From Antedon mediterranea (taxonomy: Eukaryota; Animalia; Echinodermata), in the NCBI RefSeq assembly GCF_964355755.1, contig NC_092678.1, positions 17,749,365-17,813,364 on the forward strand: a DNA stretch of 64,000 bases, written 5' to 3'. Shown piece by piece: positions 1 through 62,556 of the stretch; position 1 is the first letter of the stretch, and every line of letters begins with the position of its first letter. The position numbers and the translations under genes are program-made. The notes beneath the pieces were generated by a model. The model was not told the DNA's origin. It searched no databases and was given only the letters and a program-made list of their open reading frames with translations.

Positions 1-3000
1 AAATTCTGATTTGTCCAAATTTCTTTTTAAAAAATCTGACAAATATAAACATGAAGAAATAAAAAGCATGCAATGTCATTAATATACATCAGACTTATTA
101 TAATGACATCAATTTTCGATAATCATAAGGACGAGTTCTCGAATGATTCTCTCATTTGTGCCGATGGAATTGATATTTCCTAAGTTCACCTAACTACGGA
201 GGAATAACGCTGTTCATGTACGTACCACACTACATTATATAACAGATGCCTCACATAATGACGTTTTCATGAGAGGAAGATATATTACATTTGTTCCGTG
301 TGAACAATAAGCTTATTACAACACTATTGCAAATCATATATGAAATGAAACAATATGTCATAGTTCACTACTGTAGTAATGGATGGATAACGCAAACGTA
401 TACGTACCACCACACTATATAGATAACAAATGGCTCTTATAATGACGTTTTCTTAGAGGAAGATATAATAAATATTTGTTCCGCGTGCAAAATAAGCTTA
501 TAACACTATTGTAGATTATACGTGAATCGAAACAATTATGTCGAGTGTGCCTATTCCTTCTTGTTTTATTGTGGACAACCGCATAGAGAAACTTTAACAT
601 TTAACGCCATACGTCTGGATTGTCTGTGATTTTAAACGATTGTCAATGCTATCTCGATATATGACAATTATTTCAATTTGGTAATACAGAATCTCAAATG
701 TATCACATGTGGTTCTTGTATCATTAGGTTAAGAATAAACATTTAAAATAATTATATAATTTCTCATTTAATAAAACATACCAGTTATACAACAAACTAC
801 GTACAGGAGCTCGAGCTTATGTTAAAGTAGTACATATTTTTTATCATTTATATTAAGAATACATTAATCATAATGTTTAATGATGCTGTATTATCGAATT
901 TTAATGTTACTGGAGAAATCGAGATACAATACCGATAATCAGGTGTGTTAGACCAGAATACGTTACTCTGGCTTAAAATGGAGGTCTTTGCTTTAACCAC
1001 GTTCTGAAATGTGTCTGTAAGATTATGTTAGGCAAAAACAACACCTTGTATACCATAGCAGCCTGGTGTAGAGACCTATATATTGCCTACGCTAAATTCT
1101 TTCTTAAACTTGTTCCCACTTATACCTTCTAGAGGAATGTTATCCATAGATATAACCCTAATATACTGCTGATTGGATTCGTCATTTTATAATTGTAACA
1201 CAATGTGTCATAAGAACTGTTCGTTATACCATGGTAGTATTTGCTACAGCATGTATAAGCTCTGAAAACTCCAAAATGACCAATCCTGAGTTACAGCTAC
1301 GACGGTGCTACAGTAACTGAATTAAATAGTCTTGTTCGCAAACAATGCCAAAAACTTAAAACGAGCAAAAAGAAGATATTACATTTGAACGTATTAGGCC
1401 TATACATGAAACAGACATATTCCGTAGAAGTATTAATTAATAATTAATTCCTAAAATAAAATAATTGTTTTTTTGAGGCATTGAGTTAAAATTACGTTTT
1501 CATGAGAGGAAGAAAATATAATATTTGTTCCTCGTGCAAAATAAGCTTATTACAACACTGTTGCAGATTATACGTGAATCGGCGACGATTGTACGGAGGC
1601 CTGTCTATTTTTGTTTTCGTATCTAATTTTGGCTTTCAAAAATGGCAGCGCAAAGCAATCGCTATCCCTGGATCCGACCCGTCGTATTATTTTGATATAC
1701 AATGATAGAGGTTCAGACGTTCTGTAGTATATTTAAATTGTATTATTTGTATGTTCCCTTTAAACTTCATCTTAATTTCAAATAGAAAACTATCAATAAA
1801 GTAATATTGTTTACTTAGAAGTGTGCCAATTATCCAGCATAGAAGAAAACAAAATCGGACAAAATTTAAACACATGTTACCAGGTTTTTTTAAACATTAT
1901 TAAAGCAAAGTGTGTTAATTATTGAGATGTAAAGCACATAGGCTGATTTTAGCATGATGAAGTGCAAATATGGAGGGAGGGGAAATATAAAATGTAGACA
2001 CATATCACCTCACACGCAAGCTATTACTGACACAGTGTGAAGGCCGAAATCAAGAGACTAGTTGTTTGACGGGATGTTCCTGGTCCCCAATTATTGTGAT
2101 CCCTTATTTTAGAACTTGAAAAGCAGAAAAAAGAGGAGAATGTGTAGGCCTATGTTTGTTTGTTGCCAGATGCCTATAACGCTGGTTCAGATTTTAAGTT
2201 AAGTTTATCTTACTGACGGATAACGCTAATAATGTACCTACCACCACATTAGGTAACCGATGCGCCCCCATTATGACACGTGCGAATAAAGAAAAATAAT
2301 TGCTATTCAACCGGACGGAGGGATAGGTAACCGATGCCTCTCTTAATAACATTATTTTTTATTTAATAACATTTACTAATAATGATAATAATAATTTGCT
2401 AAAACAAACGAATACAAGTAGGTCTATCATTACACACAATACAACTACATACAGGAGCTTGTGTTAAAATAAAGGTTTAGTGATCAATAAAAATCAAACA
2501 AAAACAGGCATATTATATTATTTTAGTTTTGGATGAATATTCTGTCTTTGCAAAAAGTAAAAATGAAATGATGTGACAAAAAGTGTAGTTACATTACAAA
2601 GAAAATATACTATTTTCAAAAGTATGATAAACAACAGAAAGCACTCACAGTTCTGTCAATGATGTCAAACCATCAAACACGTTTTCTGATATTGTAGTTA
2701 TTTTGTTACTGCCCAACCCTCTGGAAATCGTGAAAAAATGCATTAAATAAGTATATAAATACAGTACCAAAGGATAGTACGGTAAAAAAAAATTATTTTT
2801 TAAATTTGTAAATACAAAAAAATATAACAACAAATATCTTATTGTGCAAACAGAGGCCAAAAAAAGCTTATGTCTATTAGGCGTGTCACTCCAGCAGTGA
2901 AAACATTACAGGGTAGGCCTATATACAAGGACATAAAAATGTTTGTTTAATGTTACTTTAGCTCGTATTATCATTAGTTGCATGTTTTAGCTGTTTTTCT

Positions 3001-4235
3001 TTAACTGCTTTTACATGATATAACTATGTTTTATCTAGATTTACTGTAAATATGTTGTAATTTCTTTAATATCTACGATACAATACAACCGTTAAATGAC
3101 GATGATCCATGTATTCTGCTATGTTTTTATTTTTCATTATGGCCGCCGATATTGCTACAGTAACTGAATTAAATAGTCTTGAGTTCGCATAAACAATGTC
3201 AAAATAGAAAAAATCAAAAAGAGCAAAACGAAAGATATTACATTTGATCGTATTACACATGAAACAGACATATTCCGTAGAAGTATTAATTCCTACAATA
3301 AAATAATTGTTTTTATGAGGCATAGCGTTAAACTGACGTTTTCATGAGAGGAAGATATAAAATATTTGTTCCTCGTGCACAATAAGCTTATTACAACACT
3401 ATTACACTAAAGCATAAAGTTACACTTAACTGTGCCTTAACACCGTTTAATAGTTCAACCGATACAACATTCTGATTTGTCCAAATTTCTTTTTAAAAAA
3501 ATCTGACAAATATAAACATGAAGAAATAAAAAGCAATGTCATTAATATACATCAGACTTAAGAATAATGACATCAATTTTCGATAATCATAAGGACGAGT
3601 TCTCGAATGATTCTCTCATTTGTGCCGATGGAATTGATATTTCCTAAGTTTACCTAACTACGAAGGAATAGATGCCTCAAATAATAACGTTTTCATGAGA
3701 GGAAGATATATAACATTTGTTCCCCGTCAACACTATTTCAAATCCCATGAATCGAAACAATATGTCGAGTGTGTCTATTCCTTCTTGTTCTTATTCCTCT
3801 TGAGAGGAAGATATATAACATTTGTTCCGCGTGCAAAATAAGCTTATAACACTATTGTAGATTATACGTGAATCGAAACAATTATGTTGAGTGTGCCTAT
3901 TCCTTCTTGTTTTACTGTGGACAACCGCATAGAGAAACTTTAACATTAACGCCATGCGTCTGGATTGTCTGTGATTTTAAACGATTGTCAATGCTATCTC
4001 GACATATGACAATTATTTCTATTTAGTAATACAGAATCTCAAATGTATCACATGTGGTTCTTGTATCATTAGGTTAAGAATAAACATTTATAATAATTAT
4101 ATAATTTCTCATTTAATAAAACATACCAGTTATACAACAAACTACGTACAGGAGCTCGAGCTTGTGTTAAATTAGTACATATTTTTTATCATTTATATTA
4201 TGAATACATTAATCATAATGTTTAATGATGCTGTA
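1..4235. repeat. Near-identical direct duplicate of 15522-19756 (offset 15521)
   Basis: ORFs at 415, 1502, 1687, 2645 and 3066 recur unchanged at +15521. One SNP seen near 602. Identity drops after ~4235. Confidence 0.92.
2649..2720 (-). CDS. 72-nt LRR exon (family A): (L)GLGSNKITTISENVFDGLTSLTE(L)
   Basis: Minus strand reads gatttccag|A GGG TTG GGC AGT AAC...ACA GAA CT|gtgagt. Exactly 72 nt, phase 2 at both ends, typical LRR consensus. Confidence 0.88.
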
Positions 4236-5027
4236 ATATCGAATGTTAATGTTACTGGAGAAATCGAGATAGAATACCGATAATCAGGTGTGTTAGACCA
4301 GAATACGTTACTCCTGCTTAAAATGGAGGTCTTTGCTTTCACCACGTTCTGAAATGTGCCTGTAAGATTATGTTAGGCAAAAACAATACCGTGTATACCT
4401 AATAGCGGCCTGGTGAGACCTATGTATTGCCTTCGCTAAATCCTTTCTTAAACTTGTTCCCACTTATACCTTTTAGAGGAATGTTATCCATAGATATAAC
4501 CCTAATATACTGCTGATTGGATTCCTCATTTCATAATTGTAACACAGTGTGTCATAAGAACTGTTCGTTATACCATGGTAGTATGTGGTGCAATTAATTA
4601 AAGAATTATATGATTTGTAAATAGTTTACACAAAGTGCAACACAGTGTGACGTATTATCTGCTACAATATCTAATGATTACACATTTTTAATAATTATGT
4701 AATTTCTCATTTAATAAAACACTTTTAATAAAAAATTACCGTATTAAACGTAGAAATCAACGTATAAAAACAATAAGTATATACAGTACCAACGGAAATT
4801 ACGATAATAAAGTATCTATTTTATTAATTTCGGAATACAAAAAAAAAATAACAAAAAAATATCTATATTGTGCCAACAGAGGCCAAAAAGACTTATGTCC
4901 AATTAGGCGTGTCACTCTGACAGTGAAACAATTACAAGGTATAATTGATATAATACTAATGTAATGTTACTTTATCTCGTATTATCATTATTTGCATGTT
5001 TTAGCTGTTTTTCATTAACTGTCTTTG

Positions 5028-5286
5028 CAACCATCCTCTTCATAAGGATATTATCGGCTCCGTTATCGTTAGAAGTGGTAGGATGAGGACGGTGAATGCG
5101 CAGACGGACCGTTACAAGTACTCGTTCTACCCAGCTGGGATAAGGCATTATAACAAAACATTTGTTAGATAGTCCTCGTTATATTTATATTTATTTTAGG
5201 CAAGCCAATGTTTATGAGCACTGTAATTTCCATTATTATTTTGGACAATAAATGAATCTGTATCTGTATCTGTATCTGTATCTGTA
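5028..5286 (+). mobile_element. 5'-truncated LINE 3' end (Rex1/Babar-like) with (TCTGTA)n tail
   Basis: Translates NHPLHKDIIGSVIVRSGRMRTVNAQTDRYKYSFYPAGIRHYN, then AATAAA and a tandem tail. Absent at paralogous sites (~30830, ~36470). Confidence 0.75.
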
Positions 5287-6663
5287 TAATTACAATGTTT
5301 TATCTAGATTAACTGTAATCATGTTGTACTTTCCATATCATATGATTTCTCGTATTATCATTATTTGCATGTTTTAGCTGTTTTTCATATGATTTCTAGA
5401 TGTATTTCAATATCTACTATACAATACAACCGTTAAATGACGATGATCCATGTATTCTGCTATATTTTTATTTTTCATTATGGCCGCCGATGGTGCTACA
5501 GTAACTGAATTAAAGAGACAAAACAATGCCAAAATAGAAAAACTCAAAAAGAGCAAAAAGAAAGATATTACATTTGAACGTATTAAGCATGAAACAGACA
5601 TATTTCATAGAAGTATTAATTCCTAAAACAAAATAATTGTTTTTATGTTTAACTCTATGCCTAATAGAGTTAAACTGACGTTTTTATGAGATGAAGATAT
5701 ATACTATTTGTTCCACGTGTACAATAAGCTTATAAAACTATTGCAGATTATACGTGAATCGGACCGGTGACGAGTCGGTGACAAACCGAACGGATCATCC
5801 AGGAGTTCTGAAACGTCTGGCCAAGTGCGCTCTCTTTGCGCAGTATTATACGGAGGCGTGTCTATTTTTGTTTTCGTATCTAATTTTGGCTTTAAAAACA
5901 TGTCAGCCCAAAATAATCGCTACCCCTGGATCCGCCCCGTCGGAATATTGTCGATATAAAATGATGGAGGTTCAGACGTTCTGTGGTAGGCCTACATTTA
6001 AATTGTATTATTTGTATTCCCTCTTTAAACTTCATCTTAATTTCAATAAAATAATATCAATTAAGTAATATTGTTTACTTAGAAGTGTGCCAGTTATTCA
6101 GCACTGAAGAAAACAAAATCAGAAAAATGTAAACACATGTTACCAGGTTTTTTTAAAACATTAATAAAGCTAAGTGTGTTAATTAATGACATGTAAAGAA
6201 CATTTTAGCATGAGGAAGTGAAAATATGGAGGGAAAGAAAACATAAAGTGTAGACACATATATCACCTCACAAGCAATCTATTGCTGACCCAGTGTGAAG
6301 CCAGAAATCAAGAGTTGTTCCTGCTCCCCAATTATTGTGGTCTCTTTATTTATAAAACTTGAAAAGCAGAAAAAAGAGGAGGAGGTGTATGTTTGTTTGT
6401 TGGCAGTCTATAACGCTGGTTCAGATTTTAAGTTAAGTTTATCTTACGGACGGATAACGCTAATAATGTACGTACCACCACATTAGGTAACCGATGCGCC
6501 CTCATTATGACGTTTTTTATAAGAGAAATTTACAAACCATGTGTTGCGCGTGCGAATAAAGAACAAGTGCAGCTATTCCACCTTACGGAGGGAAAGATAA
6601 CCAATGCCTCTCATAATAACATTATTTTTCATTTTAATAATATTTACTAATAATGTTAATAAC

Positions 6664-7728
6664 AACTAGATTTGAACTCGTAACTATGGACGAGTTTGGT
6701 TATCCGCAGCGAAAATGCCACGTGTACGTCATACTTTAGAATATTGCGCACAGAAAAACGATTATGCCATTGAAAAAATGTTAGTGTGCTCTCTATTATA
6801 TGTCACGTCTAAGTATATAGAGTATACACTATATATCTGTATACGTACTACATACAGTGCAGAATAGGTGAAAATACCGGGACCCGCATTTTCATCCAAT
6901 TTTTACCATGATGATGTCTTCAAAATGAAACACGTAGATAGCAATTTTGGAAGGAAATTATCCGAGCAACAACATATCAACGTGTTGAATAAATTTGGAT
7001 ACGTAGAATACGGAAGCGCGCTCTTTTAAATGTCATGAACTATGACGCCAAATATGAAATGACTACTGTTATAATTGAACTGGCCATATGATGACGTCAC
7101 AACATTCGATTCGCATAATTTGTACATGAATTCATATTGTACAATTCAACAGCTTCCAGAAAACGTTTTAATCATGAGTATCACTTTTTATTCTGAGGAG
7201 CTATAATAAATTTAAATTTATTGGAATGATGAAAAAAAGTAACCAAAGTTATTCACGCTTTTGAACATGATGAAGTCATAACAATTTTAAAAATGGTAAA
7301 TCATGCGAAAGATAATTGATTGACTTAGACAATATAAACATATGGGGGAAAATGGAATATGGATAAGTGGAGATGCGCTCTATTAAATGTGATGAGCTAT
7401 GACAAAAGAGACAAAAATCCTATATTTTATATTCGAGTGGCCATACGATGACGTCACAATGTCTAGTTAGCCATATTGATACATGATCCGATATCAACAA
7501 CTCATCTACTTCCAGAATATGTAAAAAAAAAACTTCACCATGTAGTTTAGAAACTATGACTGTTTAAAAAAAGTCATCATTTTGACGATTTTTTTTACTT
7601 TTTCATAAAAAACGGGCGCAAATTGTCCAATTCGACGTGCTCGTATGACGTGATTTTAATTCGAAATTATTTGAAAGCTGGGAAAATTACTAGAAAAGGC
7701 TGGAAAAACATAAATCACGCGAAAAAAA
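6664..7728 (-). mobile_element. Helentron-associated/DINE-1-like non-autonomous element (HINE family 1), truncated
   Basis: Begins with the reverse complement of the family 3' end (aactagatttgaactcg..cgagtt..ggttatccgc). Homologous to the elements at 23641-28032. Confidence 0.65.
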
Positions 7729-7867
7729 TAACATTTACTAATAATGATAATAATAATTATAGGAATAGGGCAAAGGGTAAAACATAAAATGATGTGACAA
7801 TAAGTGTGGTTATATTACAACGAAAATATACTATTTTCAAAAGTATGATAAACAAGAGCAAACACTC

Positions 7868-7939
7868 AGTTCTGTCAATGATGTCAAAACATCAAACACA
7901 TTTGCTGTTAATGTAGTTATTTGGTTATTGTACAAGTAC
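7868..7939 (-). pseudogene. LRR exon (family A) with lost splice donor: YLYNNQITTLTANVFDVLTSLTE(L)
   Basis: Acceptor ttttcag intact and 72 nt open, but followed by gagtgt instead of gtgagt (GT dinucleotide deleted). Confidence 0.8.
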
Positions 7940-8954
7940 CTGAAAACCGTGAAAAAATTCAATAAAGAAGTACAGTATATATACAGTACCAAAGAATAGT
8001 ACGATAAAAATTATCTATTTATTAATTTAGAAATACTTTCCATATCATATGATTTCTGGATGTAGATGTGTTCTGCTATATTTTTACGTTTGATATAACA
8101 TGATAGAGGTTCAGACGTTCTGTGGTATATTTATTATTGTTTTATTTGTATGTTCCCGGTAAACTTCATCTTAATTTCAAATATAATATTATCAATAAAG
8201 TAATATTGTTTACTTAAGCGTGGTTCCCACTAGAACGCAACGCAACGTATCGACGCAAACTGCTGTATTGCGTAATCACAAGTGGGAACCGACGACGCTA
8301 CAATAGACAGGTTCCATTTCTCAAAAAACGGCCTAGAAAACGGATCAAGAAGCATTTTTGGGTAGAAGCTGGGATCCACTTGATTTAGGATATTTCGACC
8401 TCGCTGATTACGAATATGGCGGATCCCAAGCGAAATTCGGCCATCTAAGCCCTTAATTTGCATAATTAAAAATGGCGGCCATTTTTTATAATTACCCTAT
8501 ATCTCGAGAACCACTAGTCACAGGTAATTAATTTTGGTCTCAAAATGTTTTAAATATATGTTTTTATATTCACTTTAATGACACATTTTCTCAAAAAATG
8601 GATGCAAGTCTTATTTATGCCATTTTGACCTTTGACCTTGATATATATTTATTATAATGAAATGTTTTTACAAAAAATGGCCGATTCTACAACTATTGAC
8701 CTTTGAACTATTAGTCAAATATAATAATATAATAATAATAAAACTTTGAAAATTGTGGTCTTATGAATTTTGTTTTCTTTTTAAATTGTTTAAAACATGT
8801 GTGTTTCTATCTAATGGCATATTTTGTACAAGAATGGCCGATAGTATGGTTATTGACCTTTAAACTACAGCATAGGCCTACTGTATACTAAATATAATAT
8901 AATTGCATAACTATGAAATTATTTATACACAATAATAATTAGTAAAATTATAAA

Positions 8955-9470
8955 ATTCACTGCCATCAAATATGATGTGTTATGATTTATATAGATTAAA
9001 AAAAAATTGAACACGCAAGTTACATTTGTTGAAATTTGAAATTACCTGCCATCAATATGATGGAGTATGATTATAGATTTTTTTAAATGTGAACATGTCA
9101 GCTACATTTGGAAATTACCTGCCATCAATATGATGGATTATGATTATAGATTTAAAAAAGAATTTGAACACGTAAGCTACATTTGAAAATTACCTGCCAT
9201 CAATATGATGGATTATGATTATAGATTTAAAAAAGAATTTGAACACGTCAGCTACATTTGGAAATTTGGAAATTTGGAAATTACCTGCCATCAATATGAT
9301 GGATTATGATTGTATAGTACCTGCCATCAATATGATGGATTATGATTATAGATTTAAAAAAGAATTTGAACACGTAAGCTACATTTGAAAATTACCTGCC
9401 ATCAATATTATGGATTATGATTGTATAGATTTAAAAGAAAATGTGAACACGTAAGCTACATTTGGAATGA
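8955..9470. repeat. ~65-70-bp minisatellite in the Academ left arm (mirror copy ~10980-11480)
   Basis: Repeated attacctgccatcaatatgatggattatgattatagattt...gctacatttg. Confidence 0.85.
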
Positions 9471-9484
9471 ACATGTTAAGGGCA

Positions 9485-10560
9485 TCAGTTAAGATCATTC
9501 ATGCAAAGGTTTCCGTCATCTTTAGCGTTTTTACAGCGGCATAAAGCTGTACATGGTAGTTTTGACTTCTTGCACCTACATCTATTGGTTATGCATCGTG
9601 TCTTGTATCCACAATAAATCATCTCTAACAAAGCAGTAGGAATAGCTTCATTTTTCAGAAGCACTGGTTGAAGTTTACCATTAGATAGCTCCCAACCAAA
9701 ATCTGTTGGTGATGGCAAATGCTGGATTGGCGATACAGCTTTTTTCCATACGAGTGCTTGGAAGTGTGCTCTTTTTATATGTTGGTGCACTGCATCGCTT
9801 GTTGGAGGTAATGCGTCTGGTTTTGTCTGTTTTTTTTAAAGCCCGGACTTCATTGGTACTTTTAACTTGACCAACACCGTAAACGTAGCAAATGAATCTT
9901 TCCGATTTCATAATAACTTGGTCACTGATAGGTTTTCTCCCAGGTCTTTAATTAGTTCATAATGTTTTTTTAATACTTCCCATGCCGATGCCTTTGAGTG
10001 ACCACTTAGATATGAGCAGGGAAGAGTTAAATTACTGTATGTATGTATTAATGTAATTGAACTCTTCCCTGGATATGAGGTAGTATCGCATCCACTAATG
10101 GTGTGGAATGGAATCAGTGCTTTTGCATAACACTCGGGCAAGGCTTGAAAAATGTTTTTTATAGATACTTTCTTTTTTGGATGTCCCTGTCATCATCCAT
10201 TTGGATACCATGCTTTGGTAGTGAGACACTAGAATCACTATTACGTCTGTATCATCCCTAGAAGCAACTACAACTGTGTCGTATCGGACATTGGCAGCAT
10301 GACAAGTCTCGTGTCCGATTCTTCATGATCTGCGACCAGAGACAACGTATTATTCGTGTAGACTTTTGATGATTTAACAACTGATTCTTTCATAAATCCA
10401 CCAGCTGTGACAATTTCTTTGTCTATAGGAGCTTGACGAATCAACTCCTCTGATAGAAATCGTGCCAGATCTGCTTTATTATCTTGTAATGCCAAAAAGT
10501 TTGGCAGCGGTATTTCACCACTTTCTATAATTCGACGAATTGGTCTCTGTGTTTTGGTTC
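9485..10560 (-). pseudogene. Frameshifted C-terminal part of the Academ protein (XPG domain + Cys8 finger)
   Basis: Consecutive minus-strand ORF pieces 10268-10495, 9908-10141, 9681-9911 and 9485-9790 in different frames. Confidence 0.78.
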
Positions 10561-10639
10561 ATCTTTGTCTGGTGGTGTCCTTTATCGACAGTTTTAAGTT
10601 AGGCATGCCATGTTAAAAAAAACCAAAACCGGGCATTAC

Positions 10640-10963
10640 CTCCAACAAGCGATGCAGTGCACCAGCATATTAAAAGAGCACACTTCCAAGCACTCGTACT
10701 GAAAACAGCTGTATCGCCAATCCAGCATTTGCCATCACCAACAGATTTTGGTTGGGAGCTATCTAATGGTAAACTTCAACCAGTGCTTCTGAAAAATGAA
10801 GCTATTCCTACTGCTTCGTTAGAGATGATTTATTGTGAATGCAAGACACGATGCATAACCATATAGATGTAGGTGCAAGAAGTCAAAACTACCATGTACA
10901 GCTTTATGCTGCTGTAACCACGCTAAAGATGACGGAAACCTTTGCATGAATGATCAAAACTGA
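10640..10963 (+). pseudogene. Inverted duplicate of the Academ protein C-terminus
   Basis: ORF 10657..10866 nearly identical to 9485..9790 but on the opposite strand. Confidence 0.78.
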
Positions 10964-12394
10964 TGCCCTTAACATGTTCATTCCAAATGTAGCTTACGTG
11001 TTCACATTTTCTTTCAAACCTATACAATCATAATCCATCATATTGATGGCAGGTAATTTCCAAATTTCCAAATGTAACTGACGTGTTCAAATTCTTTTTT
11101 AAATCTATAATCATAATCCATCATATTGATGGCAGGTACTATACAATCATAATCCATCATATTGATGGCAGGTAATTTCCAAATTCCTGAATGTAGCTGA
11201 CGTGTTCAAATTCTTTTTTAAATCTACAATCATAATCCATCATATAGATGGCAGGTAATTTTCAAATGAAGCTTACGTGTTCAAATTCTTTTTTAAATCT
11301 ATAATCATAATCCATCATATTGATGGCAGGTAATTTCCAAATGTAGCTGACATGTTCACATTTTTAAAAATCTATAATCATACTCCATCTTATTGATGGC
11401 AGGTAATTTCAAATTTCAAATTTCAACAAATGTAACTTGCGTGTTCAATTTTTTTTTTAAATCTATATAAATCATAACACATCATAATAATTTTACTAAT
11501 TATTATTGTGTATAAAATTTTCATAGTTATGCAATTATATTATATTCAGTATACAGTAGGCCTATGCTGTAGTTTAAAGGTCAATAACCATACTATCGGC
11601 CATTCTTGTACAAAATGTGCCATTAGACTGGATAGAAACACACATGTTTTAAACAATTTAAAAAGAAAAAAAAATTCATAAGACCACAATTTTCAAAGTT
11701 ATATTATTATTATATTATTATATTTGAATAATAGTTCAAAGGTCAATAGTTGTAGAATCGGCCATTTTTTGTAAAAACATTTCATTATAATAAATATGAA
11801 TGTATAGTTTCTGAACAATTTGAGCCCTATTTCGTGTCTCTCCGATTATTGGTTACTGAGATACGATAAATCAAGGTCAAAGGTCAAAATGTCAGAAATA
11901 AGACTTGCATTCATTTTTTGAGAAAATGTGTCATTAAAGTGAATATAAACACATATATTTAAAACATTTTGAGACCAAAATTAATTATCTGTGACTAGTG
12001 GTTCTCGAGATATAGGGTAATTATAAAAAATGGCCGCCATTTTTAATTATGCAAATTAAGGGCTTAGATGGCCGAATTTCGCTTGGGATCCGCCATATTC
12101 GTAATCAGTGAGGTCGAAATATCCTAAATCAAGTGGATCCCAGCTTCTACCCAAAAATGCTTCTTACACCATATTTCAGAGGAAATAGAACTTGTCTACA
12201 ATGCTGCAAAGCCGCAGGTTTGATTTCACGCAGGTTAGGGAAAACACAATTATCGGAAGGGCATTTTCTTACGCTGCGTAGGTTGCGTTACGTTGCGTCG
12301 CTAGAAGTTAGAAGAGTGCCAGTCATTCAGCACTGAAGAAAACAAAATAAGAAAAAATGTAAACACATGTTACCAGGTTTTTTTAAAACATTAA

Positions 12395-14681: not shown

Positions 14682-14753
14682 AGTACTGTCAATGATGTCA
14701 AACCATCAAACACGTTTTCTGATATTGTAGTTATTTGGTTATCATACAACCAC
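14682..14753 (-). pseudogene. LRR exon (family A) with GT>TT donor mutation: WLYDNQITTISENVFDGLTSLTV(L)
   Basis: ttttcag acceptor, 72 nt open, donor reads ttgagt rather than gtgagt. Confidence 0.8.
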
Positions 14754-49157: not shown

Positions 49158-52100
49158 AATAATAATAATAATAAATGAAAACTTAAAAAGCGCCGGTATC
49201 CTCCACCCATGTGGCGCTCATGGCACTTTGTGCATTAACAACGTGCGAGAACATCAGCGAATAGCGACGTCTTTAGGTTGGTCTTGAAACTGTTTAGACT
49301 AGTTGAGCATTTAACTGTTGCTGGTAAGCTGTTCCATACACTTGCGGCCGCAACGTAAAAAGATCTCTGACCCCACTGAATTTTCGCTCTACGCTCTTGA
49401 AGAAGGTTTTGTGACAATGATCGTAGGCATCTGCGGGATGATTCGTAACGATCCACAAGGTCAGATAAATAAGCAGGAGCACTGTCATTTAGGATCTTGA
49501 ATACAAACAACGCAAGTTTGTACTTAATACGTTGTTGAACAGGCAACCAATGCAAATCCATCAGGACAGGAGTTATGTGAGCGTTTGATTTTGTATAAGT
49601 TACAATTCTAGCTGCCATATTTTGCAAGCGCTGCAAACGTTGTATTTGAGATTTTGGTATGCCAAACAACAAGGCATTACCAATGTCAATTTTAGAAGTG
49701 ACAAATGAGTGTACAATCAATTCAGCTGTTTTCTTGTTAAGATTACCGCGAATACGACCAAGGTTCCTAATCGATATGCATGCTGCTTTGGATACAGTTG
49801 TTATTTGTGCTTCCATAGTGAGATTACTATCCAGCATGATTCCCAGATTCCAGACCACCGATGAGGGAGCGATGTTAGAGTGTCCGATTCTGATATGTGT
49901 GATGTTGATTTTGGAGATGTTACATTTAGACCCGACGATAATAAACTCTGTCTTTCCATCATTCAACTTTAGGTAATTTGATGTCATCCAATTGCGAACA
50001 TCTTCTATAAACAGGCTTCCATCTTACTGATTGCTGCAGCAACATCCCTTTGCACTGGATTTACTGACACATAAATCTGTGTATCATCTGCATAGAAATG
50101 GAAATGTAGACTGTGTTTGCGAATAATGTCACCAAGGGGAAGCGTATAAATGGAAAACTGGCCAGGCCCAATTACTGACCCCTGTGGTACACCATATTCC
50201 AGGCAAGCTTCATCTGAGAATGCATCATTGATACAGACTAGCTGACGTCTTCCTGTAAGATATGACTGGAACCAGTTAAGAGCAACACCATTTATGCCAA
50301 TGCGATTTCTCAGACGGGTTATCAGTCTTTGGTGATCAACTGTATCAAACGCTGCTGACAAATCCAACAACACCAATAGCGTTATTTTCCCATCATTCAT
50401 TCCTTGTAACAAATCATTCTGTACCTTTAAAAGGGAACTCTCCGTGCTATGACATGCACGGTATGCCGACTGGTAATTCTCATTTAAATTATGCTTTTGA
50501 AGATATGGAGTAATGCGTGATGTCACTACACGCTCCAGAGTCTTTCCAAGAAAAGAAAGATTCGACACCGGGCGGTAATTTCTCAGCGTGTTATGATCCA
50601 AGTTTTGCTTTTTTATTAAAGGACGAACGTGAGCAATTTTCAGTTCATCTGGCACTATGCCGGTATTAAGAGAATGGTTAATGATTTCCGTTATTATTGG
50701 AACGACTGCGTCTATACACTTCTTCAGTATAGAAGTAGGAACTGGATCTAACCTGCATGATTTTGTTGGTGATTTCATCAGAATGTTGCGGATCTCATCT
50801 TGAGATGCTGGTGTAAATGTTGTGAGATGCTGATGAACAGCTGTCACAGGCTCATTAAATGACATGTCATCAATCTTGAAGTCGTCTCTGATGATCTTGA
50901 TCTTGTCTGTGAAAAACTGACAGAACCTGTTCGCAAGATCTAAGTCAGAAAGACTATCTGAGAGAGGTGATACCTGGCGATGATGAAGGAGTTGGTTAAC
51001 AATTTTAAAAAGTCCTTTCTGATCTGCTGCATGTTCTTCACACAAGCCAATGTAGTAGTTGGCCTTTGCCTTTCTTACCATGGAATTTACATTCCTCTTC
51101 TGTGCAATGTAAGCTTGACGATCTATTTCCAGATGAGAGATTCTCCATTTCTTTTCAAGCTTACGCTTTGTTCTTTTCTCAGCATAGATGTTACTGTTAT
51201 ACCAACTAGTGTTTGGTCGGATCTTTACTGTTCTCTTTTTCGGTGGTGCGTGTTTGTCAAGAAGTTCACTCAAAGTGGTGACATATAGTCGTACTTTACT
51301 TGATAAATCAAGATTTGAGAGCGAAGTTCCGAGATCAGACTGTGTGATATCTTTACATAATGTCTCAAAATTTATAGCATTCCAATGACGAGTTTCGATG
51401 GATTTAGTGATTACGGGTGGCTTCTTGATAAGGAGATTACATGTGATTGCATAGTGATCTGATATACCATCAATGACATTAAGGTTTGAGAAAACAGGAG
51501 GATCAGATGAACGAGTGATCAGCAAGTCTAATGTATGACCATGTCGGTGTGTAGGTGTAGACACATGCTGTTGAAGACTGCTTGCTACAAGTAGATTCCG
51601 AAAATGAATTGCATCTGCATCATTTGGCATATCCACATGGATGTTAAAGTCTCCAACGAATAGTATGGGAGCCGGCTTCAATACATAGTGATCGACCAAA
51701 GTTGAGAATTCTTCAGTGAAAACATTTAGACTGCAACCCGTTGATTTGCTTTGAGAACGATATACTGCTACGAGGAAAACTGAGGATGCATTGCTGACTA
51801 TTTCCACATTTAGCAGTTCAAATGATTTTGGTAATAATCCCGTGTCATAACATTTAACCGCTATGCTTTCCTTGTAAAGAAGTGCAACTCCACCACCTCT
51901 TTTAGTACCAGCACGGGGAGCATGTTTGAGAGAGTATCCGTTGGGTGTAATATTTCCTATAACTGATGTGTCTTCTGGTTTAAGCCACGTTTCCGAAAGG
52001 GCAACAACATCCAGATTATGTTCGATAACGAAATCCACAAATTCTGTTGTTTTGTTCCGAACGGATCTTCTATTAATACTGCAAAATTTAATATTGTTTT

Positions 52101-52971
52101 TAGATAAGAGAGAGTTTGATGATAAGTCCGGAAATGATAGATTGTTTTTAGTGTGTTTGTCACGCCCAGCTCTTGTACCACGCCTGGTTTTTCTTTTTGG
52201 CCTCCTTGGTAATAGGTGACTACTACAGCTACTGGAGTTCAACTTAAAAGATTGTATAATTAAGCAAGATTCTTCAGGAAGTTCACAACTGTTATTGTTG
52301 TTGGTTACACAGCCCTGTAAACCATGAAGAAACTCAGAGCTATAGCTAATTAGCATGACAACAGCAGATCTTCAAGCATGAGGTGTACAAGGTCATTTAC
52401 ATAACAATATGCACAGTCAGATTGAAAGTACAGGGCTAGCTTCCCACTGATGCTAGTAGACCATTGTTCTTGAGCAGTGATGAGTTTGAATTAAAACAAT
52501 AAAGGCACAAGCAGGGCCTAGCTGAACTTCAGGAAACAACAAGAAAAACAACTGCGATTTACTCCAAGATACGATTATTTCCACATAAGAAATTTGTGAA
52601 TATATGGTGCTCAATTTGCTATTCCAGCATCCAGTAAAACTTATTTGATGAAAAAAACCATCTGCAAACAGATACGAAGTTGTTATGCACAGAGCAATAT
52701 AGAGCCGCCACATGGGCGCTGCAACCTCCTCTAGTAAAGCACATTGAAGGCCAGTAACGTCGCTAATAGTTCCACTGGAAATACGCCTTTTCACGATATG
52801 GAAGACATCTTCTTCGATGGATGACAAAATAATAATATGAGCAAAGCGTAGCCAATGGTTCTGTCCACAACAGATTGTGGACAAGCCCATAATAACGACC
52901 ATATTAATGTCAAAGGCAAAGTTACTAAAACATTCATAACTGATTAACGGCGGACAGTCAAAATGAAATTC
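49158..52971 (-). mobile_element. L2 LINE, second copy produced by the tandem duplication
   Basis: Identical ORFs 50005..52356 and 49235..49987, with the same frameshift and flanks. Confidence 0.92.
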
Positions 52972-54271
52972 CAAAAATGTTAGTCACCTTAAGCATACTA
53001 TTTTGTCCCCTCCGAAGAAATGTATATTCAGTGGTTAGTTTGATTATTCTACATGTTGACTTACATAATAAAACCATCGAAACATGTTAATCTAAACTTT
53101 CACAAATGTGTGCTTATAATCATCTCGTTCGGTTTTATCAAAGAAATACTGTCAACATTCTAACAAATCTCGCCCTTTCTCCAAGTATTATTCAATGTTA
53201 ATTTAATTTAACAAAAAAAATTGATTAAACATGTAGATTATTTATTATTTAAAAAGGCAACCAGTGAACGTTACTGGTGAGAGAACCACTAAAACCGTGG
53301 CGTGTCTCGACATCCAGTCCATGGTGTTTAAAGTTAGAATACACTGCTCCAGGAAGACGCTACCTTAATCCACGTTAGGGCAAATGAGCACTGTCTGTAA
53401 GACTCTGTTATGCAGAAATGTATATCAAATGAAAACGAAAAGGAAAGTCTGGAGTTGTGACTAACCATCTATTTCAGCCAAACAAAAAATGGAACATACT
53501 CTATCGACAAAATAGGGACCAAATCAGAACCCATCAAGATCATATGTATAACTCGACTGCTGATAAATGACGAACGTAAGCTATTTACACGCTACCACTG
53601 TAAGGAGCTCGAAAGCAGAGATGAATAGATGAATGGATGATAAAATTAATAACTTGCACTACTATATCCTAATTGATAATGAAATAAACATGAACTATAT
53701 TAATGACATTACAATTGTTAACTGAACTGAAGTACATGATGAACAACCACTATTTAGTTTTATAATGAACTTCTGTAATATGAACAAATTGAAACTACTT
53801 AATTTGTATTTTTACATTACTTTATTGTCAAAAACCAACGTAATAAAATATTAGAATATAGGCCTACAGCACCGGATATTTATGATAACGTGATCTAATG
53901 ATTATTTGAATAGACACCACACCTAGGAAATTGAATACAACAATTCTGTAGTCAAAATTAAACTGGTTTCTTGTGATAGCGTCAACAAGCATTATTGACA
54001 TGAGTAGTGTACTCCATATTATTGGTATGATGTACTGTAAGTCCCTCCGGATATATTTAAAGTTACTGGACTTATTATTAATAGTTTTTCGTTAGTAAAT
54101 TGACACTTTATACTGCCTTAGTAGGTTCCGATGAACCTTAGAATCAGGAAAAACTTCAAATATCATATCTTATATTATGTCTAATTTCATAATTAACATG
54201 ATTGCCTTGCAATGTAAATCAGCATTCTTTACATTTTTTGGATGCATACAATTATAAGAAGAAATACTTAC

Positions 54272-54343
54272 AGTATTTGCAAAGATGTTAAACCACCAAA
54301 TACATTTGCAGGCAATGATTGTAAGTGGTTTTCGTTTAAATAT
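54272..54343 (-). CDS. 72-nt LRR exon (family C), copy of 42441-42512
   Basis: Identical at offset +11831, with AG and GTAAGT sites. Confidence 0.86.
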
Positions 54344-55209
54344 CTTCAACAACAAAAAGAAACAAAAGTTAGTAATTAAACATTCACGAGCTGTTTTGAA
54401 GGATGTCGTCTTTGTTTTTGGACACAAAAGTAAATTAAAATATGTTGGCCGTATAGAATAGGTGTCTGTGGAAATTACTATATGGCCGATAACGTTACGA
54501 ACGTTTGGTTATTACACAAATGAAAATGTAAATAAAGTGCATGATCGAATAGTTTTAGGGTTCTAAGATGGAGAAATAGACATCAAACTCGTCTGCTGTC
54601 ATTCGTCTGAAAGTCAATATAAACGGTCAGGCCGTTATTATAAATGAGAAAAAACGTAGTAAAAGTGTAGTATTATACTTAAACTTAATTTAAACTTTTC
54701 ATAAAATGTCGATTGATGTTACGTATGAAGTGATATCCGGGAACATTGCGTCAAGTTTATCGAACAATTTGGGTACGAACTTTCAAAAACCGCTTTATCA
54801 TGCCATTAAGTAATTGTTCATATAAAGAATCGATTTTCCTATATCAATGTAAACGATTCCATGTGGTTCATGTTCTAAAAAAACTGCTATTGTTAGCCCT
54901 GAAAAAAAAGAACCTATTATACTTTTACGGACCATTTTCGCTGAACACGTCGAAGATGTTGGTACTTAGCATTAGTTAGTTTTAAGTTGGACAAAAGCAG
55001 TTTATTAACTTTAAAAGGAGCATCCCAACCATTGCCTGGTCGGCGATCTTTTGACTAAACGTCCTAAATATATTTTTGAACAAACAAAGTTAAATCAAAT
55101 CATCTGAACTCATATTATTAGTTAGTAAATTGAATTTTAGAAACATCTACACATATCATATATCTGTAAATCTGCAGCATATTTGAAGTATAAAATTATA
55201 AGAAAACAC

Positions 55210-55267
55210 AGTATTTGCAAAGATTTTTAACCACATTTGCAGGCAATGATTTTCGTCGTATAAATAC
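55210..55267 (-). pseudogene. Internally deleted LRR pseudo-exon, copy of 43379-43436
   Basis: Identical at offset +11831. Confidence 0.68.
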
Positions 55268-56470
55268 CTTGTAAATGTTGTAAATAAACACAGGAGCTGT
55301 TTTGAAGGATGTCTTTGTTTTGGAAAAAATAGTTTCACTTGCGTATATGTCAATGATTAACATAGAGTGGTTGTAAAATAATAAGTGTCAGTGGAAAATA
55401 ATAGATGCTGATGTTAACATGCTAATAAAAAAAAGAAGAGTAACATTACAAATGTAAGAGTTTAGCTTTATAATGTATTTGTAATAGGTAGTCTCTGTAG
55501 CAAGGGCAAATTCTCACCCGACTAAACATAGCTGAAATAATAGTTGATGTAGACCTAATCTGACCTACATGAATTTTAGAATTGAGAATAACCAAACGAA
55601 TTAAGAACAATTTTTACAGAAAATTGATGGTATAATGATGATTTATTTGCAGTTTAAGAAGTGACAGTATTTTCCCTTCTCTTATCTTATCTTATCTAGG
55701 TCTACTGCAGAATGTGAACGGAAACATCCGTATACGTTTGACAAAAAGTATAAAAAATTACCTATAAAAAGATTGACCAGTTTATAATAATCTCATAGCG
55801 CCGTTACACACTCACATAATTATTATTTGTTTGTACAATAATGTAAGCAAATAGACTGGAAGATACTAAAGCATTTTTTAAAAACTATAACACAATACTA
55901 CTGTTGTAAGGTCTATAACCCACAAGGGCTTTGATGTTACTGTAATGATCAATAACTGTACCATTAACATTGGTCAAATCAAGTAAACATGTTCCTACCA
56001 AGAATAACCTGTAATACAAAAATGTAAACATAATAATACAATTTTAATATAAATTTTATTGACAAAAAGAGAGATAGACGTTTCATTACTATCATAGAAA
56101 CATTTTCAAGATCAAGTGAATCCAAATCAATAATAATTATTTGCACTAAGCACCAAAGTTGGTGACATGAAATGCTACTGAGGGATTGAAATTAAATATT
56201 AAACGTCTTTTAATTCATAATAATACAACTTAAAACTATCATTTTAATTATTTTGCAAAAAAACAAAAAAACACACATATTTTATGTTTTATCCGCTTTG
56301 ATTAAGAATAAATTGAATAATGTGTTATTGTTCAGAGTCATACCACAAGGCTTCAATTAAAAAAATATACTTTAACGTACTAATGTTATAGGATCTAGTA
56401 TGTCAACAAATTACACCAGGTATGTATGCAATATTTTACTCCAGAAGATGTTAAAATACTCAAGAATAAA

Positions 56471-59085
56471 CTAGCTAAGTAACTGATGGGGGTGACAGTG
56501 TCGTATTAAAACGTCGTCAAAAAGTCGAGAATAATATGACCGGTATCTTATCATTTCTTATTAACAATAATGTTGAATTAAAGAATTCTGACATTTCCTG
56601 CTGTGAACTTATCTAAAATTGCAACTGTTGATATTGGGGCTGTAGATACTGCCTCGTTATATCGTGAGATAAACAAGATACCATTTGATTTGCAGCTTGT
56701 AAAAGGAGATGTTGAGCATGGTTTTACTGAAAGACAACACATCAAGATTAAGCTGAATGAGTGTTATTGAACAGTCAAAACTTCATTGAACTGCAATAAT
56801 GCTAGCAACGCCAAGTATTTTCCTAATGCTGTTTAAGTGATGCTTCTCGTCAAGGTACGTATAAGCAAAAGCCACAAAAAAGCAGACACATGCCTTCCTT
56901 GGAATTATGTCCGTTGATACCACCGTGGATGGAAATCAATGCAAAAGTGAGTGCTTTGACTGTTAAAAGTGATGAATATGCTCCTTTATTGTTGAGCTGT
57001 GATGCTAAATATAAAGAGAATATATACTTGGTCCGTCACTCTGGCCTGCTAATGCCATCATTCGTAAATATTATGAGCCTAGAATTGGTTTGAAAGATAA
57101 TCAATATGACTCCAGCTTTAACCATACTGGTTAGTCATGGCTGTTCATCAAACTTGTGATGTCCGAGTAGTTTCATATAACTGTAAGAAATTAAAGTCTA
57201 AACAGAAGAAGATTATTGACTTATGCGAGACGTATGATGTTATTTGTTTGCAAGAAACATGGCTATGTTATGATGAGCTTCACCTCTTGGAAACGCTGTA
57301 TATTGATTTTGACTGTTATGGCACGTCGTCTATTGATACCTCCGCATCTCTGGAAGTGTAGCTACATTGTTTAGAAAGAGTTTATATAGTTCTGGTAGGC
57401 TGTGAGAATCGGGGTTCACGTCTGACACGTTTACCTTCTATAGCACATAACACAACCAGTCGGTTGGACCATTTAGTTTCCACTCAGAGTTCTCATTCTA
57501 GTTTAAGTAATTGTAATTGTAGTTTTGCGTCAGGTAGTTGAGTGATTAGATGTTTTGCCCTACTAAGTAAAATTGAGAATATTTGCGAAAACATTCGCAA
57601 GTAGTTCTCGGGTGAGACTCGAACCCACGACCTCCAGATCACTAGCCTGGCGTTCATACCTCTAGACCACCGAGCTTGCGCTGATGGCCAGTGGTTAGAT
57701 TCGAGCTCAAGTAAGCAGCGGGTACTGCACCAACAGGATTGTAATTGTAGTTTTAGCTATTGTAATTTTAGCTATATGATTTCATAGGGTCTGATCATTT
57801 CTCTATTGCATTTTGTATTAATGATGTTTTATGGGATAAGCCTATAACCCATGATTCAAGATAACGACAGACATAACATTGCAACTATTGTTAACTGCAA
57901 GTCCGTTAGTAAACAGGATATTGATAAGTACACTTATACCACATGTATTACTTAATAGTCTTTTAATTAAGTCCTAAGCTTTCAATTGCCATAGTTTCTT
58001 TCTGGACGCACCAAAAGCGTTCGATCGAGTCAAATCTTATTTAAAGTTTTAGTTGAAAGAGGTGTGCCTATCTTTGTAGTTAGGAGCTTACGACACTGGT
58101 TTGATAATCAAGAATTTGTTGTTAAATGGGGACATTGTGTCCCTTCACTTTTTTTCTGTTATTAACGGTGTGCGCCAAGGGGGTGTAATGTCTCCACTGC
58201 TTTACAATGTAGCCTATTATATTGACGATCTTTATGTACAACTTAGAGAGTCCAATCATGGGTGTACTATTGGTGATAACAAAGTTAATTGTCTCAGTTA
58301 CGCTGATGACATGCTTCTCATGGCTTCTTTTTCTATTGGAGTACTGAATCTCATTAATGTTTTTGAACTTTATGCTACGAATCGAGATATTGTGTACGGT
58401 ACTATACAATCCAAGTGTATGTTTTTATGTGCTCGTGTACGTAAGTTACAAGGTTGACCTAGTGTTAAGCTAAACCACAATGACCTTGAATTTGTTGACT
58501 GTATAACATACTTGGGTCATGTGATTTTTAACTCTCTGAATTATGATAATGATATTAAGAAACAGTATCGAGCTCTGTATATCAAAGCTAATGCATTATA
58601 CAGGACATTCTACAAATGTTCCGTTGAAGTTAAATGTCAGTTATTTAAAATGTTTTGCGTTAATGTAGGTCAATACTGTATGACTCTATGGAGTAAATTC
58701 CGTGAAGGTACTGTAAACTAATTTAAAGTTTTCTTTAATAACGGGTTGCGTAAGCTACTGAAAATTCTTAGTTATAGCATGATGTTTTTTAACGAATAAC
58801 GTTCCCTCATTCTATAATTAGATGGAACGCTATACATTATAGTTTTAAGAACATAATTAATGACAGTTGCAATAGCCTGATTCAAACCATAGTCTGTTAA
58901 CGTCCTTACACAATCCAACCTACATCAGCGTTGGTACAAATTGGTATTTAGGATATTGTAGGTTGGTTTTGTGGAAGTGGCTTATATTGTTAATTTCCTG
59001 GTGAAATTGTTTCTATTTTTGTTTTTTGTATGATTTGTATATGGATGTACTATCCGAAATAAAGAAAATGAATGAATGGGTGAAT
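56471..59085 (+). mobile_element. Degenerate RTEX-like LINE, paralog of 44640-47260
   Basis: Essentially identical until ~58470, then diverged (ORF 58512 differs from ORF 46681). Confidence 0.75.
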
Positions 59086-59256: not shown

Positions 59257-59328
59257 AGTGTAACCAATGATGTCAAACCACCAAATGCATTTTCATGCAA
59301 TATAGTAATGTCATTACTTCCTAAATTC
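59257..59328 (-). CDS. 72-nt LRR exon (family B): NLGSNDITILHENAFGGLTSLVT(L)
   Basis: tttttaag|G AAT TTA GGA AGT AAT...ACA CT|gtaagt. Corresponds to the end of ORF 59253..59447. Confidence 0.88.
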
Positions 59329-60224: not shown

Positions 60225-60335
60225 TTCACGAACTTAGGAAGCCTCAAAATGAATATGATACACGCACATATCTTTAATTATGATATTCATTAGGCCTACA
60301 TTTGGCCTGGGTTAACCCATTGTGGTGCTGTTTTT

Positions 60336-60858: not shown

Positions 60859-60930
60859 AGTGTAACCAATGATGTCAAGCCACCAAATGCATTTTCATGC
60901 AATGTAGTAATGTCGTTACCTCTTAAATCC
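60859..60930 (-). CDS. 72-nt LRR exon (family B): DLRGNDITTLHENAFGGLTSLVT(L)
   Basis: ttttgaag|G GAT TTA AGA GGT AAC...ACA CT|gtaagt. Confidence 0.88.
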
Positions 60931-61859: not shown

Positions 61860-61966
61860 TTCACGAACTTAGGAAGCCTAAAAATGAATATGATACACGC
61901 ACATATCTTTATGATATCCATTAGGCCTACATTAGGCCTGGGTTAACCCATTGTGGTGCTGTTTTT

Positions 61967-62169
61967 TTAGTCGCGTGGACTCAATAGTTCACTATGTCGG
62001 TCGGTCTGTCGATCTGTCGGTCTGTCTGTCGGTCCGGTATCACTATGCGTTTTATCGCTTTTCTGTACTTTTTGAACTGTTTTGATGTACAGAAAAGTTT
62101 TAAAGTACATTACTTTTTGAAAGTTCATTTTTTTCTGAGAGCACGCGACTTATGGCTGTTGGCCTTGTT
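61967..62169 (+). mobile_element. HINE-like family 2 element
   Basis: Paralog of 60336-60543. Confidence 0.7.
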
Positions 62170-62484
62170 TATTTTTCAGTTCGATTCTTCCAGGATAGTA
62201 TTGTTTTATTTATTTAATCTATAGAAGGTTTAAAATGTTGTTTAATAATTAATGTTAGATGGTATGAGATAAAACAAGAGACAAACTGTACATAGTAACA
62301 GGAATGAAATTGAAAATGATTACCACTTTCTGTTAATGTGTTAATACAACTTAAATTTATCGTTTGATTTATTTTGCAAAATACACTAAATTAGGAAAAA
62401 CAGATTTTATGTTGTATCCGCTTTAATAATAAAGAAAAAGTCAAAGAATTTGTTATTTGTTAAAAAATGAGAATAAACACTTAC

Positions 62485-62556
62485 AGTGTAACCAATGATG
62501 TCAAACCATCAAATGCATTTTCATGCAATGTAGTAATGTTGTTACTACTTAAATCC
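62485..62556 (-). CDS. 72-nt LRR exon (family B): DLSSNNITTLHENAFDGLTSLVT(L)
   Basis: ttttgaag|G GAT TTA AGT AGT AAC AAC...ACA CT|gtaagt. Confidence 0.88.

Follow-up and report, generated by a model that had tools for sequence, protein, structure and literature searches.

Brown-algal genes of the ROCO type I class encode one LRR per 72-nt phase-2 exon, keep inactivated copies in their introns, and recombine their units; the residues that vary lie on the concave face (Zambounis et al., PMC3341825; Teng et al., PMC11378527; both according to the portions accessible to us), and these genes have EST or splice-variant support. Tetrahymena utilizes 90-nt phase-2 one-repeat LRR exons, spread over thousands of genes, with unequal crossing-over and with LINE-like elements adjoining the units (Xiong et al., PMC6564038). 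In the case of lamprey and hagfish VLRs, 24-residue repeats are supplied by unspliced donor cassettes lying in either orientation, which are assembled somatically into an incomplete gene; in lamprey, the cassettes number hundreds and the only intron of the gene is situated in the 5' UTR (PMC3308329, in the part accessible to us). The variation falls on the concave face (PMC3900441). Among invertebrate recognition proteins, crab VLR2 (PMC10045472, in the accessible part) and arthropod Dscam are diversified at the splice level.

The window analysed here, the whole 64-kb stretch of DNA from the feather star Antedon mediterranea, contains an array of 14 one-LRR exons over 60 kb, all on the minus strand, ten of them intact and four dead. 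By analogy with brown algae and ciliates, the array follows the known one-LRR-per-exon design. One LRR per 72-nt phase-2 exon, with inactivated copies, is shared with ROCO type I, and phase-2 one-repeat exons beside LINE-like elements are shared with Tetrahymena, but there are differences. The ROCO repeat is of the GxxPxxL... type, whereas the repeat here is of the putatively extracellular xLxxNxIxxL...FxGLTSL type in a different exon register; the window is devoid of a ROC-COR GTPase domain, and none of the 14 exons lies on the opposite strand. Compared with Tetrahymena, the exons measure 72 or 75 nt instead of 90, a single locus is seen, and the organism is an animal, not a ciliate. Splice-level diversity of the kind shown by the isoforms of crab VLR2 and Dscam would be possible in the feather star array, which has been read as DNA only; unlike Dscam, its exons encode LRRs, without Ig-domain exon clusters. 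The ten intact and four dead exons probably represent the middle of one large extracellular LRR gene, in which the repeat number would change in the germline by unequal crossing-over.

Composition and splice sites of the exon array

The members of the array are as follows, with intact exons in phase 2-2.

62485..62556, minus: intact 72-nt LRR exon, class A; AG/GT splice sites, splice scan; Pfam LRR_8 E 5e-6
60859..60930, minus: intact 72-nt LRR exon, class A; splice sites, splice scan
59257..59328, minus: intact 72-nt LRR exon, class A; splice sites, splice scan
55210..55267, minus: decayed class-C-like LRR exon, 58 nt, with deletions; sequence comparison
54272..54343, minus: intact 72-nt LRR exon, class C; splice sites, splice scan, Pfam search
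47426..47497, minus: intact 72-nt LRR exon, class A; splice sites, splice scan
43379..43436, minus: decayed LRR exon, 58 nt, with deletions; identical to 55210-55267
42441..42512, minus: intact 72-nt LRR exon, class C; identical to 54272
35595..35666, minus: intact 72-nt LRR exon, class A; identical to 47426
32434..32508, minus: intact 75-nt LRR exon, class D; profile, splice scan, weak Pfam LRR_8 match (E 0.077)
18170..18241, minus: intact 72-nt LRR exon, class B; splice sites, splice scan, Pfam search
14682..14753, minus: dead class B exon, frame open, donor GT changed to TT
7868..7939, minus: dead class B exon, frame open, donor GT lost
2649..2720, minus: intact 72-nt LRR exon, class B; identical to 18170

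The ten intact exons reduce to only seven distinct sequences because three pairs (54272 and 42441, 47426 and 35595, 18170 and 2649) lie in near-perfect segmental duplicates, and none of the seven branches of the exon tree is strongly supported. Exons 60859 and 62485 form a tandem unit of about 1.6 kb. Each of the nine 72-nt exons is flanked by AG and GT, begins with G or A, ends in CT and translates as xLxxNxIxxLxxNxFxGLTSLxx. Nine intact minus-strand exons of 72 nt and phase 2-2 had been listed in the initial annotation, and all their coordinates were confirmed, as were four decayed copies (14682, 7868, 43379 and 55210) and the proposal that any subset joins in frame through Leu, which holds for every one of the 45 ordered pairs that the intact exons form (CTG or CTA). 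Its total of 13 copies, nine intact, stands insofar as every copy was found again, but a 14th, intact exon (32434-32508) had been missed and the nine amount to six distinct sequences. This 75-nt phase 2-2 exon contradicts the statement that there were no other recognisable exons and, as a fourth class, the division into three sequence families.

The array is real and beyond chance. With a local profile trained on seven of the copies, the 12 open-frame copies scored 32.8–51.1 bits, against a best score of 3.5 on the reversed window; copies held out of training reached 43.4 bits (14682) and 32.8 bits (7868). The score of exon 62485 against Pfam LRR_8 was 26.6 bits, slightly below the 27-bit cut-off. 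Simultaneously, a minus-strand splice-site scan that is blind to protein content placed all ten intact exons within the top 14 of 25 passing rows, exon 32434-32508 having the highest splice score on the strand. An 85-nt splice candidate (55924-56008 and 44093-44177) is not LRR-like, has a length that is not a multiple of three and is probably due to chance, and a weak profile match at 26471-26512 (5.4 bits) contains stops and is close to the control level.

Moderate acceptors and long introns are conditions that permit exon skipping. Here the acceptors of classes A and C score a moderate 3.6–4.2, compared with 9.3 for the 75-nt exon, and the introns between exons span 1.5–15 kb. It is conceivable, though on balance unlikely, that the cassettes are skipped or included in many combinations, yielding a repertoire of LRR proteins from one gene atop germline copy-number change, in a ROCO-like or crab VLR2-like manner. 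Every exon subset would stay in frame, and the accessible parts of the reports describe LRR-exon splice variants in Ectocarpus ROCO genes (PMC11378527) and ten isoforms for crab VLR2 (PMC10045472). However, any one-repeat exon that is duplicated will be symmetric in frame whether or not it is skipped, and the donors of all ten intact exons are near consensus (GTAAGT or GTGAGT). Furthermore, the flanks of the four classes have no motif of at least 6 nt in common, and nowhere in the window does a 9–12 nt stretch pair with the upstream flanks of at least three classes; the window thus shows nothing resembling Dscam-type docking. In Dscam, the Ig exons are chosen mutually exclusively; no selector or docking stretch of that type was found in the window, a search that a site outside it or imperfect pairing would escape. 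Seven nucleotides of the class A/C upstream flanks are complementary to the class B upstream flanks, which is attributed to chance; the formal docking test at 9–12 nt was empty.

Duplication and possible exchange between units

Four further features are situated around and between the exons.

34840..58474, no strand: tandem duplication, period 11,831 nt (34840-46643 equals 46671-58474, 0 mismatches)
1..19756, no strand: second duplication, offset 15,521 nt (1-4235 equals 15522-19756, 1 mismatch)
37404..40540, minus: intronic LINE, endonuclease and reverse transcriptase in two frames; second copy at 49235-52371
46249..46626, plus: decayed reverse-transcriptase fragment adjoining the boundary of the 11.8 kb duplication; copy at 58080-58457

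Each copy of the 11.8 kb duplication carries two intact exons, one dead exon and one LINE, the LINE of the locus being 93% identical to an Antedon mediterranea protein, in keeping with a crinoid origin of the window. The second duplication is near-perfect over at least 4.2 kb and extends past the left window edge. Both terminate within repeated sequence that is 88–95% alike, one end adjoining the reverse-transcriptase remnant. In the introns, six consecutive informative sites group exon 62485 with 47426 and later sites group it with 60859, a mosaic that suggests exchange between units. An 11.8 kb duplicate with no mismatch is also the expected look of an assembly error.

Among public DNA runs, two that derive from a single sample each include one contig in which 47191 is joined to 59023, omitting 11,831 nt. 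The short side of this joint measures 46 letters, and a paralogous unit elsewhere could be its source. In runs X1 and X2 (organism A), the contig depth on the 11.8 kb unit is 2.1 times that of three zero-mismatch pieces outside the duplications, a ratio that is not a copy number and whose reference pieces might stem from a single haplotype; the 15.5 kb duplicate reaches only 1.2–1.8. Sequence related to the exons and introns also occurs in a second organism. A pair of changes at 62539-62540 that would jointly turn codon 6 into Gly (in no window copy) is found in three contigs each of X1, X2 and X5 (organism B), and the organism B contigs match the introns in eight listed pieces of 191–426 nt with 2–12 differences each. 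The word shares of runs X5–X8 were small (0.04–0.10), and of these runs X5, X6 and X8 entered the analysis. Run X8 had been guessed to be RNA, but one of its contigs continues from exon 47426 into the intron on either side, differing at 21 of 490 nt, and its depth tracks repeats, so that it behaves as thin DNA; no joint linking two exons is among the 15 joints listed of its 159.

Recent change in repeat number, a tested trait of one-LRR-per-exon arrays, is found here in the duplications, the joint skipping 11,831 nt and the mosaic introns, with some chance of assembly error. The view of the locus as an expanding and contracting cassette array is upheld by the two very young duplications, the dead copies and that same joint. 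Such a locus could also be a decaying remnant or an orphan exon field outside any working gene, its size partly due to assembly duplication: four of the 14 copies are dead, 88% of the window is self-matching, three intact exons exist only as exact duplicates, and the databases searched contain no annotated protein that matches. We regard this as quite improbable, since length, frame and the flanking AG and GT are conserved in the seven distinct exons, the close pairs are free of framework changes, the second organism has related exon and intron sequence, and the depth on the larger duplicate is about double.

Under germline change of one large gene, look-alike exon–intron units would mispair, and unequal crossing-over would change the repeat number, the decayed LINE pieces inside the units possibly supplying homology for the mispairing. 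Units could be gained or lost without disturbing the frame, all exons being of phase 2-2 and divisible by three in length, and copies losing the donor site would fall out silently.

Repeat type and predicted binding face

The repeat consensus is, by its sequence, of the extracellular 'typical' LRR type. Its best PDB matches are an LRRTM design, VLRs, repebodies, LRRC15 and LGR4/5, and VLRs together with VLR-derived repebodies dominate the best 60 of 78 matches, in agreement with the resemblance to VLR LRRV modules noted in the initial annotation; the 24-residue length is also that of lamprey and hagfish VLRs, whose consensus is very similar (PMC3308329, accessible part). The further suggestion of a VLR-like locus is not supported, because each intact module is bounded by its own pair of splice sites and the 14 copies share a single strand, in contrast to the lone 5' UTR intron and either-orientation cassettes of the lamprey layout as given in the accessible part of PMC3308329. 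The fit to the LRRV consensus, and two dead exons with open frames that could serve as templates, would accord with a somatic process, in immune cells and by way of a cytidine deaminase as in VLR assembly, in which the exons are donors whose sequence is copied into an incomplete gene. This explanation is very improbable: splice sites are needless for a conversion donor, the co-orientation and the splice-site layout differ from the lamprey gene as above, and many unrelated proteins match the same consensus.

The same repeat type occurs in the Ptychodera flava 'slit-like' P0094 (LRR-Ig-membrane), in LGR/GRL101 receptors (PMC8286064) and in LRR-bearing adhesion GPCRs (PMC6408891). P0094 is one of two named matches, and the sole named animal one, among the best 120 of 463; similarity to ambulacrarian LRR proteins is generic, about 60% over one repeat, and gives no indication of orthology. 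One copy per species is reported for the GRL101, dilp7 and gonadulin receptors, and the six LRRs of GRL101 are fewer than the ten of the feather star array (PMC8286064).

Across three independent close exon pairs, none of the 51 nonsynonymous sites in framework codons has changed, whereas the 47 synonymous sites counted over all codons have 5.5 changes (Fisher p = 0.02), which indicates constraint on the protein. Simultaneously, the concave-face codons have a pN of 0.34, compared with an overall pS of 0.12 and an intron mismatch of 0.07. The predicted binding (concave) face, defined by six positions chosen from the LRR consensus after the alignments had been viewed, holds 11 of the 17 residue changes in the three pairs (exact p = 0.023), a result that leans on a pair with a dead exon, intact-exon pairs giving 6 of 12 changes (p = 0.25). 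A fast-changing predicted binding face is thus a candidate feature. If the array is the middle of one gene, its intact exons may mostly be spliced in order, building a solenoid of ten or more repeats, and its concave face may diversify as expected for the binder of a changing partner, such as a microbe, a gamete or a self marker.

Parent gene and biological meaning

Membership of one gene and extracellular location are likely, judged from strand, phase and consensus only. The array reaches both window edges, and ORF, splice and Pfam scans of the 64-kb window found no start, signal peptide, cap, membrane or signalling exon; LRRNT, LRRCT and a stalk were likewise not seen within the window, from which the parent class (LRR-Ig membrane protein, LRR-GPCR or secreted LRR protein) is not readable. 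An LGR or adhesion GPCR would have a seven-transmembrane domain, along with a hinge or a GAIN/GPS region, downstream of its LRRs. Three protein searches of a database that includes A. mediterranea proteins found no protein holding the exons, the closest of 372 proteins compared being identical at 17 of 23 residues. Two were word-index searches with exon profiles (spanning 71–2000 and 77–2000 aa; 463 matches, best 120 inspected, and 16 matches) and one a full HMMER search (4051 matches at E<=0.001, best 150 inspected), with match lists ranked by summed repeats. Proteins sharing the consensus are many and unrelated, mostly metagenome records. No crinoid orthologue is among the matches listed by either method, which are generic LRR proteins; this is weak evidence of absence.

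One-LRR-per-exon architecture arose many times in eukaryotes, and the surprise is accordingly moderate. In the literature searched, judged by titles and the beginnings of abstracts, no report of LRR gene expansion in crinoids was found, nor, in echinoderms, any of single-exon LRR encoding with exon skipping. A crinoid gene diversifying twice, with LRR cassettes that vary between haplotypes in number and kind and that every animal splices in many combinations, is an improbable, speculative reading; if true, this two-level diversification would constitute a VLR-shaped variable receptor made from exons in feather stars, a system undescribed in the echinoderm literature searched. Crinoids are the earliest-branching echinoderm class, their immune and recognition genes are little described, and in this young, probably copy-number-variable LRR exon array they have a concrete candidate for a variable recognition protein.

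The exon array and its splice signals

Nine intact LRR exons (lower coordinates 62485, 60859, 59257, 54272, 47426, 42441, 35595, 18170, and 2649) lie on the minus strand as initially annotated, each arranged as AG / 72 nt / GT, with G or A as the first base and CT as the final bases. The four dead copies claimed alongside them were recovered through self-comparison and translation. The tally of 13 modules, however, was one short, as a scan of all AG..GT intervals revealed an overlooked 14th module, itself intact. The modules beyond the nine are as follows:

32434–32508, minus strand: intact LRR exon of 75 nt, phase 2-2, from the scan of AG..GT intervals
14682–14753, minus strand: dead LRR exon, frame open, donor GT changed to TT
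7868–7939, minus strand: dead LRR exon, frame open, donor GT lost
43379 and 55210, minus strand: dead LRR remnants of 58 nt, mutually identical

The LRR array is far above chance: a profile trained on seven exons scored the 12 open-frame modules at 32.8–51.1 bits, versus 3.5 bits for the reversed window, and the two held-out copies reached 43.4 and 32.8 bits. Pfam LRR_8 was matched by all four exons tested (E 5e-6 to 0.08), none of which reached the curated cut-off. In a minus-strand splice-site scan that was blind to protein content and based on generic site frequencies, 25 candidates passed; all ten intact exons ranked 14th or better, and the 75-nt exon ranked first. An 85-nt interval (55924–56008 and 44093–44177) also has exon-grade splice scores; it is non-LRR, breaks the frame, and is probably a chance occurrence.

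In-frame joining via a Leu codon, as proposed in the initial annotation, holds for 45 of 45 ordered pairs among the ten intact exons. Such frames permit combinatorial exon skipping, but a search of the window for selector or docking-like elements gave none, and this explanation is doubtful. Signal peptide, cap, membrane, and signalling exons were likewise not recognised within the 64-kb window, the array ending less than 3 kb from both edges.

Constraint and variation in the exons

Three close pairs, each independent of the others (62485/60859, 59257/47426, and 18170/14682), served to assess selection. The seven framework codons carry 0 nonsynonymous changes at 51 sites, against 5.5 synonymous changes at 47 sites when all codons are counted (p = 0.02); therefore, the exons are constrained as protein. 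The conserved splice sites and framework speak against a dead remnant enlarged by assembly, an origin that is improbable.

Codons 1, 3, 4, 6, 22, and 23 are taken to lie on or beside the beta-strand face, according to the LRR consensus. At these six codons, assigned from general LRR structure after the alignments had been seen, pN is 0.34, versus a pS of 0.12 and an intron mismatch of 0.07 (Fisher p 0.01–0.04 against synonymous sites). They hold 11 of the 17 residue changes in the three pairs (p = 0.023), and 6 of 12 when only intact exons are counted (p = 0.25). Diversifying selection on the face codons is thereby suggested. At 62539–62540, two changes occur at equal depth and contig counts in contigs of three public DNA runs (X1 and X2 from the organism A sample, X5 from organism B); combined, they would turn codon 6 into Gly, a residue that no window copy has there.

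Duplications, depth, and mobile surroundings

Positions 34840–46643 equal 46671–58474 with zero mismatches, and 1–4235 equal 15522–19756 with one mismatch. Because of these two duplications, the ten intact exons comprise seven distinct sequences, the other three being copies. The ends of both fall within repeats 88–95% alike; the larger (11.8 kb) begins next to the decayed remains of a reverse transcriptase, and its junction combines patches from both flanking units with one private base. Older exon–intron units of 1.6–1.8 kb are 80–88% alike, and the class A units (those of exons 62485, 60859, 59257, 47426, and 35595) may have exchanged sequence, judging by their intron sites. Judged from the sequence, the duplication ends, junction patchwork, older units, and intron exchange would together form the pattern of unequal crossing-over. 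The one-LRR-per-exon array is real, young, and unstable.

Words of 54001–64000 are present at 0.66–0.69 in four runs (one sample, organism A) and at about 0.1 in three runs of organism B, whose contigs closely match intron stretches in at least eight pieces. One contig in each of two organism A runs joins 47191 to 59023, bypassing 11,831 nt; this joint could represent a haplotype without the 11.8 kb unit, or a paralogous unit. Relative to three zero-mismatch pieces that lie outside both duplications, contig depth is 2.1x on that unit in X1 and X2 alike, and only 1.2–1.8x on the 15.5 kb duplicate. Around the 75-nt exon (32199–33161), it is 1.9–3.9x relative to unique pieces across three runs, suggesting further copies of its class, D, outside the window; some contigs there carry 11–13 differences or gaps. 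Contig depth does not measure copy number, and the reference pieces could derive from a single haplotype; depth therefore favours real duplication with further copies beyond the window, but is also compatible with assembly error.

The window has a GC content of 34%, and self-match covers 88% of it. Its long reading frames are mobile elements, namely a LINE, reverse-transcriptase and endonuclease remnants, and transposase-like pieces:

37404–40540 and 49235–52371: LINE, reverse transcriptase divided between two frames

The LINE protein shows 93% identity to an Antedon mediterranea protein across 68% of the query, the next match being 59%; the window therefore probably belongs to a feather star, either Antedon or a near relative. 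This LINE, called young, is matched at ~99% by contigs of both organisms; its family is thus either recent or shared. At 59484–63558, a decayed LINE endonuclease fragment (plus strand) lies in a 1.6 kb exon–intron unit and was copied together with the exon. A large inverted duplication at 8347–12165 is probably a decayed DNA transposon. Its arms of ~1.5 kb (93–98% identity) flank a spacer of 0.8 kb, and each contains 75-nt tandem repeats; its transposase-like frames are broken and end in a CXC cysteine cluster, which matches Pfam TCR weakly (E 0.15). Very high-copy interspersed repeats occupy 23672–29674, where contigs add up to a depth hundreds of times greater than over the exons; they include three tandem copies of ~1.4–1.5 kb at 24048–28036, with inverted copies at 6465–7730 and 33125–34032.

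Comparison with other LRR systems

The LRRV modules of agnathan VLRs are similar in sequence to the window repeat. Lamprey VLR genes have their sole intron in the 5' UTR and cassettes by the hundreds in either orientation (PMC3308329), with variable residues on the concave face (PMC3900441). Somatic assembly of the VLR type is, despite the similar modules, at odds with the locus layout and highly improbable. The closest layout to the window array is that of brown-algal ROCO genes, which have 72-nt exons, inactivated copies in introns, and recombination (PMC3341825), as well as phase 2 exons, selection on the concave face, and splice variants (PMC11378527). In Tetrahymena, arrays of 90-nt phase-2 exons lie next to a LINE-like element and have spread through unequal crossing-over (PMC6564038), and crab VLR2 has ten splice isoforms (PMC10045472).

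The parent gene could be an LGR, an LRR-bearing adhesion GPCR, or an LRR-Ig membrane protein like the 'slit-like' protein of Ptychodera flava (P0094). Ambulacrarian GRL101-branch LGRs are reported as single-copy (PMC8286064), and 5 of 22 octopus group-3 adhesion GPCRs contain LRRs (PMC6408891). Protein searches gave no crinoid orthologue of the array exons among the matches listed, and no crinoid description of such an array was found in the literature searched. On balance, the window is fairly likely to hold the central part of a single large extracellular LRR gene, whose symmetric one-repeat exons would be added to and dropped from the germline locus, and the predicted binding face of the protein would diversify.
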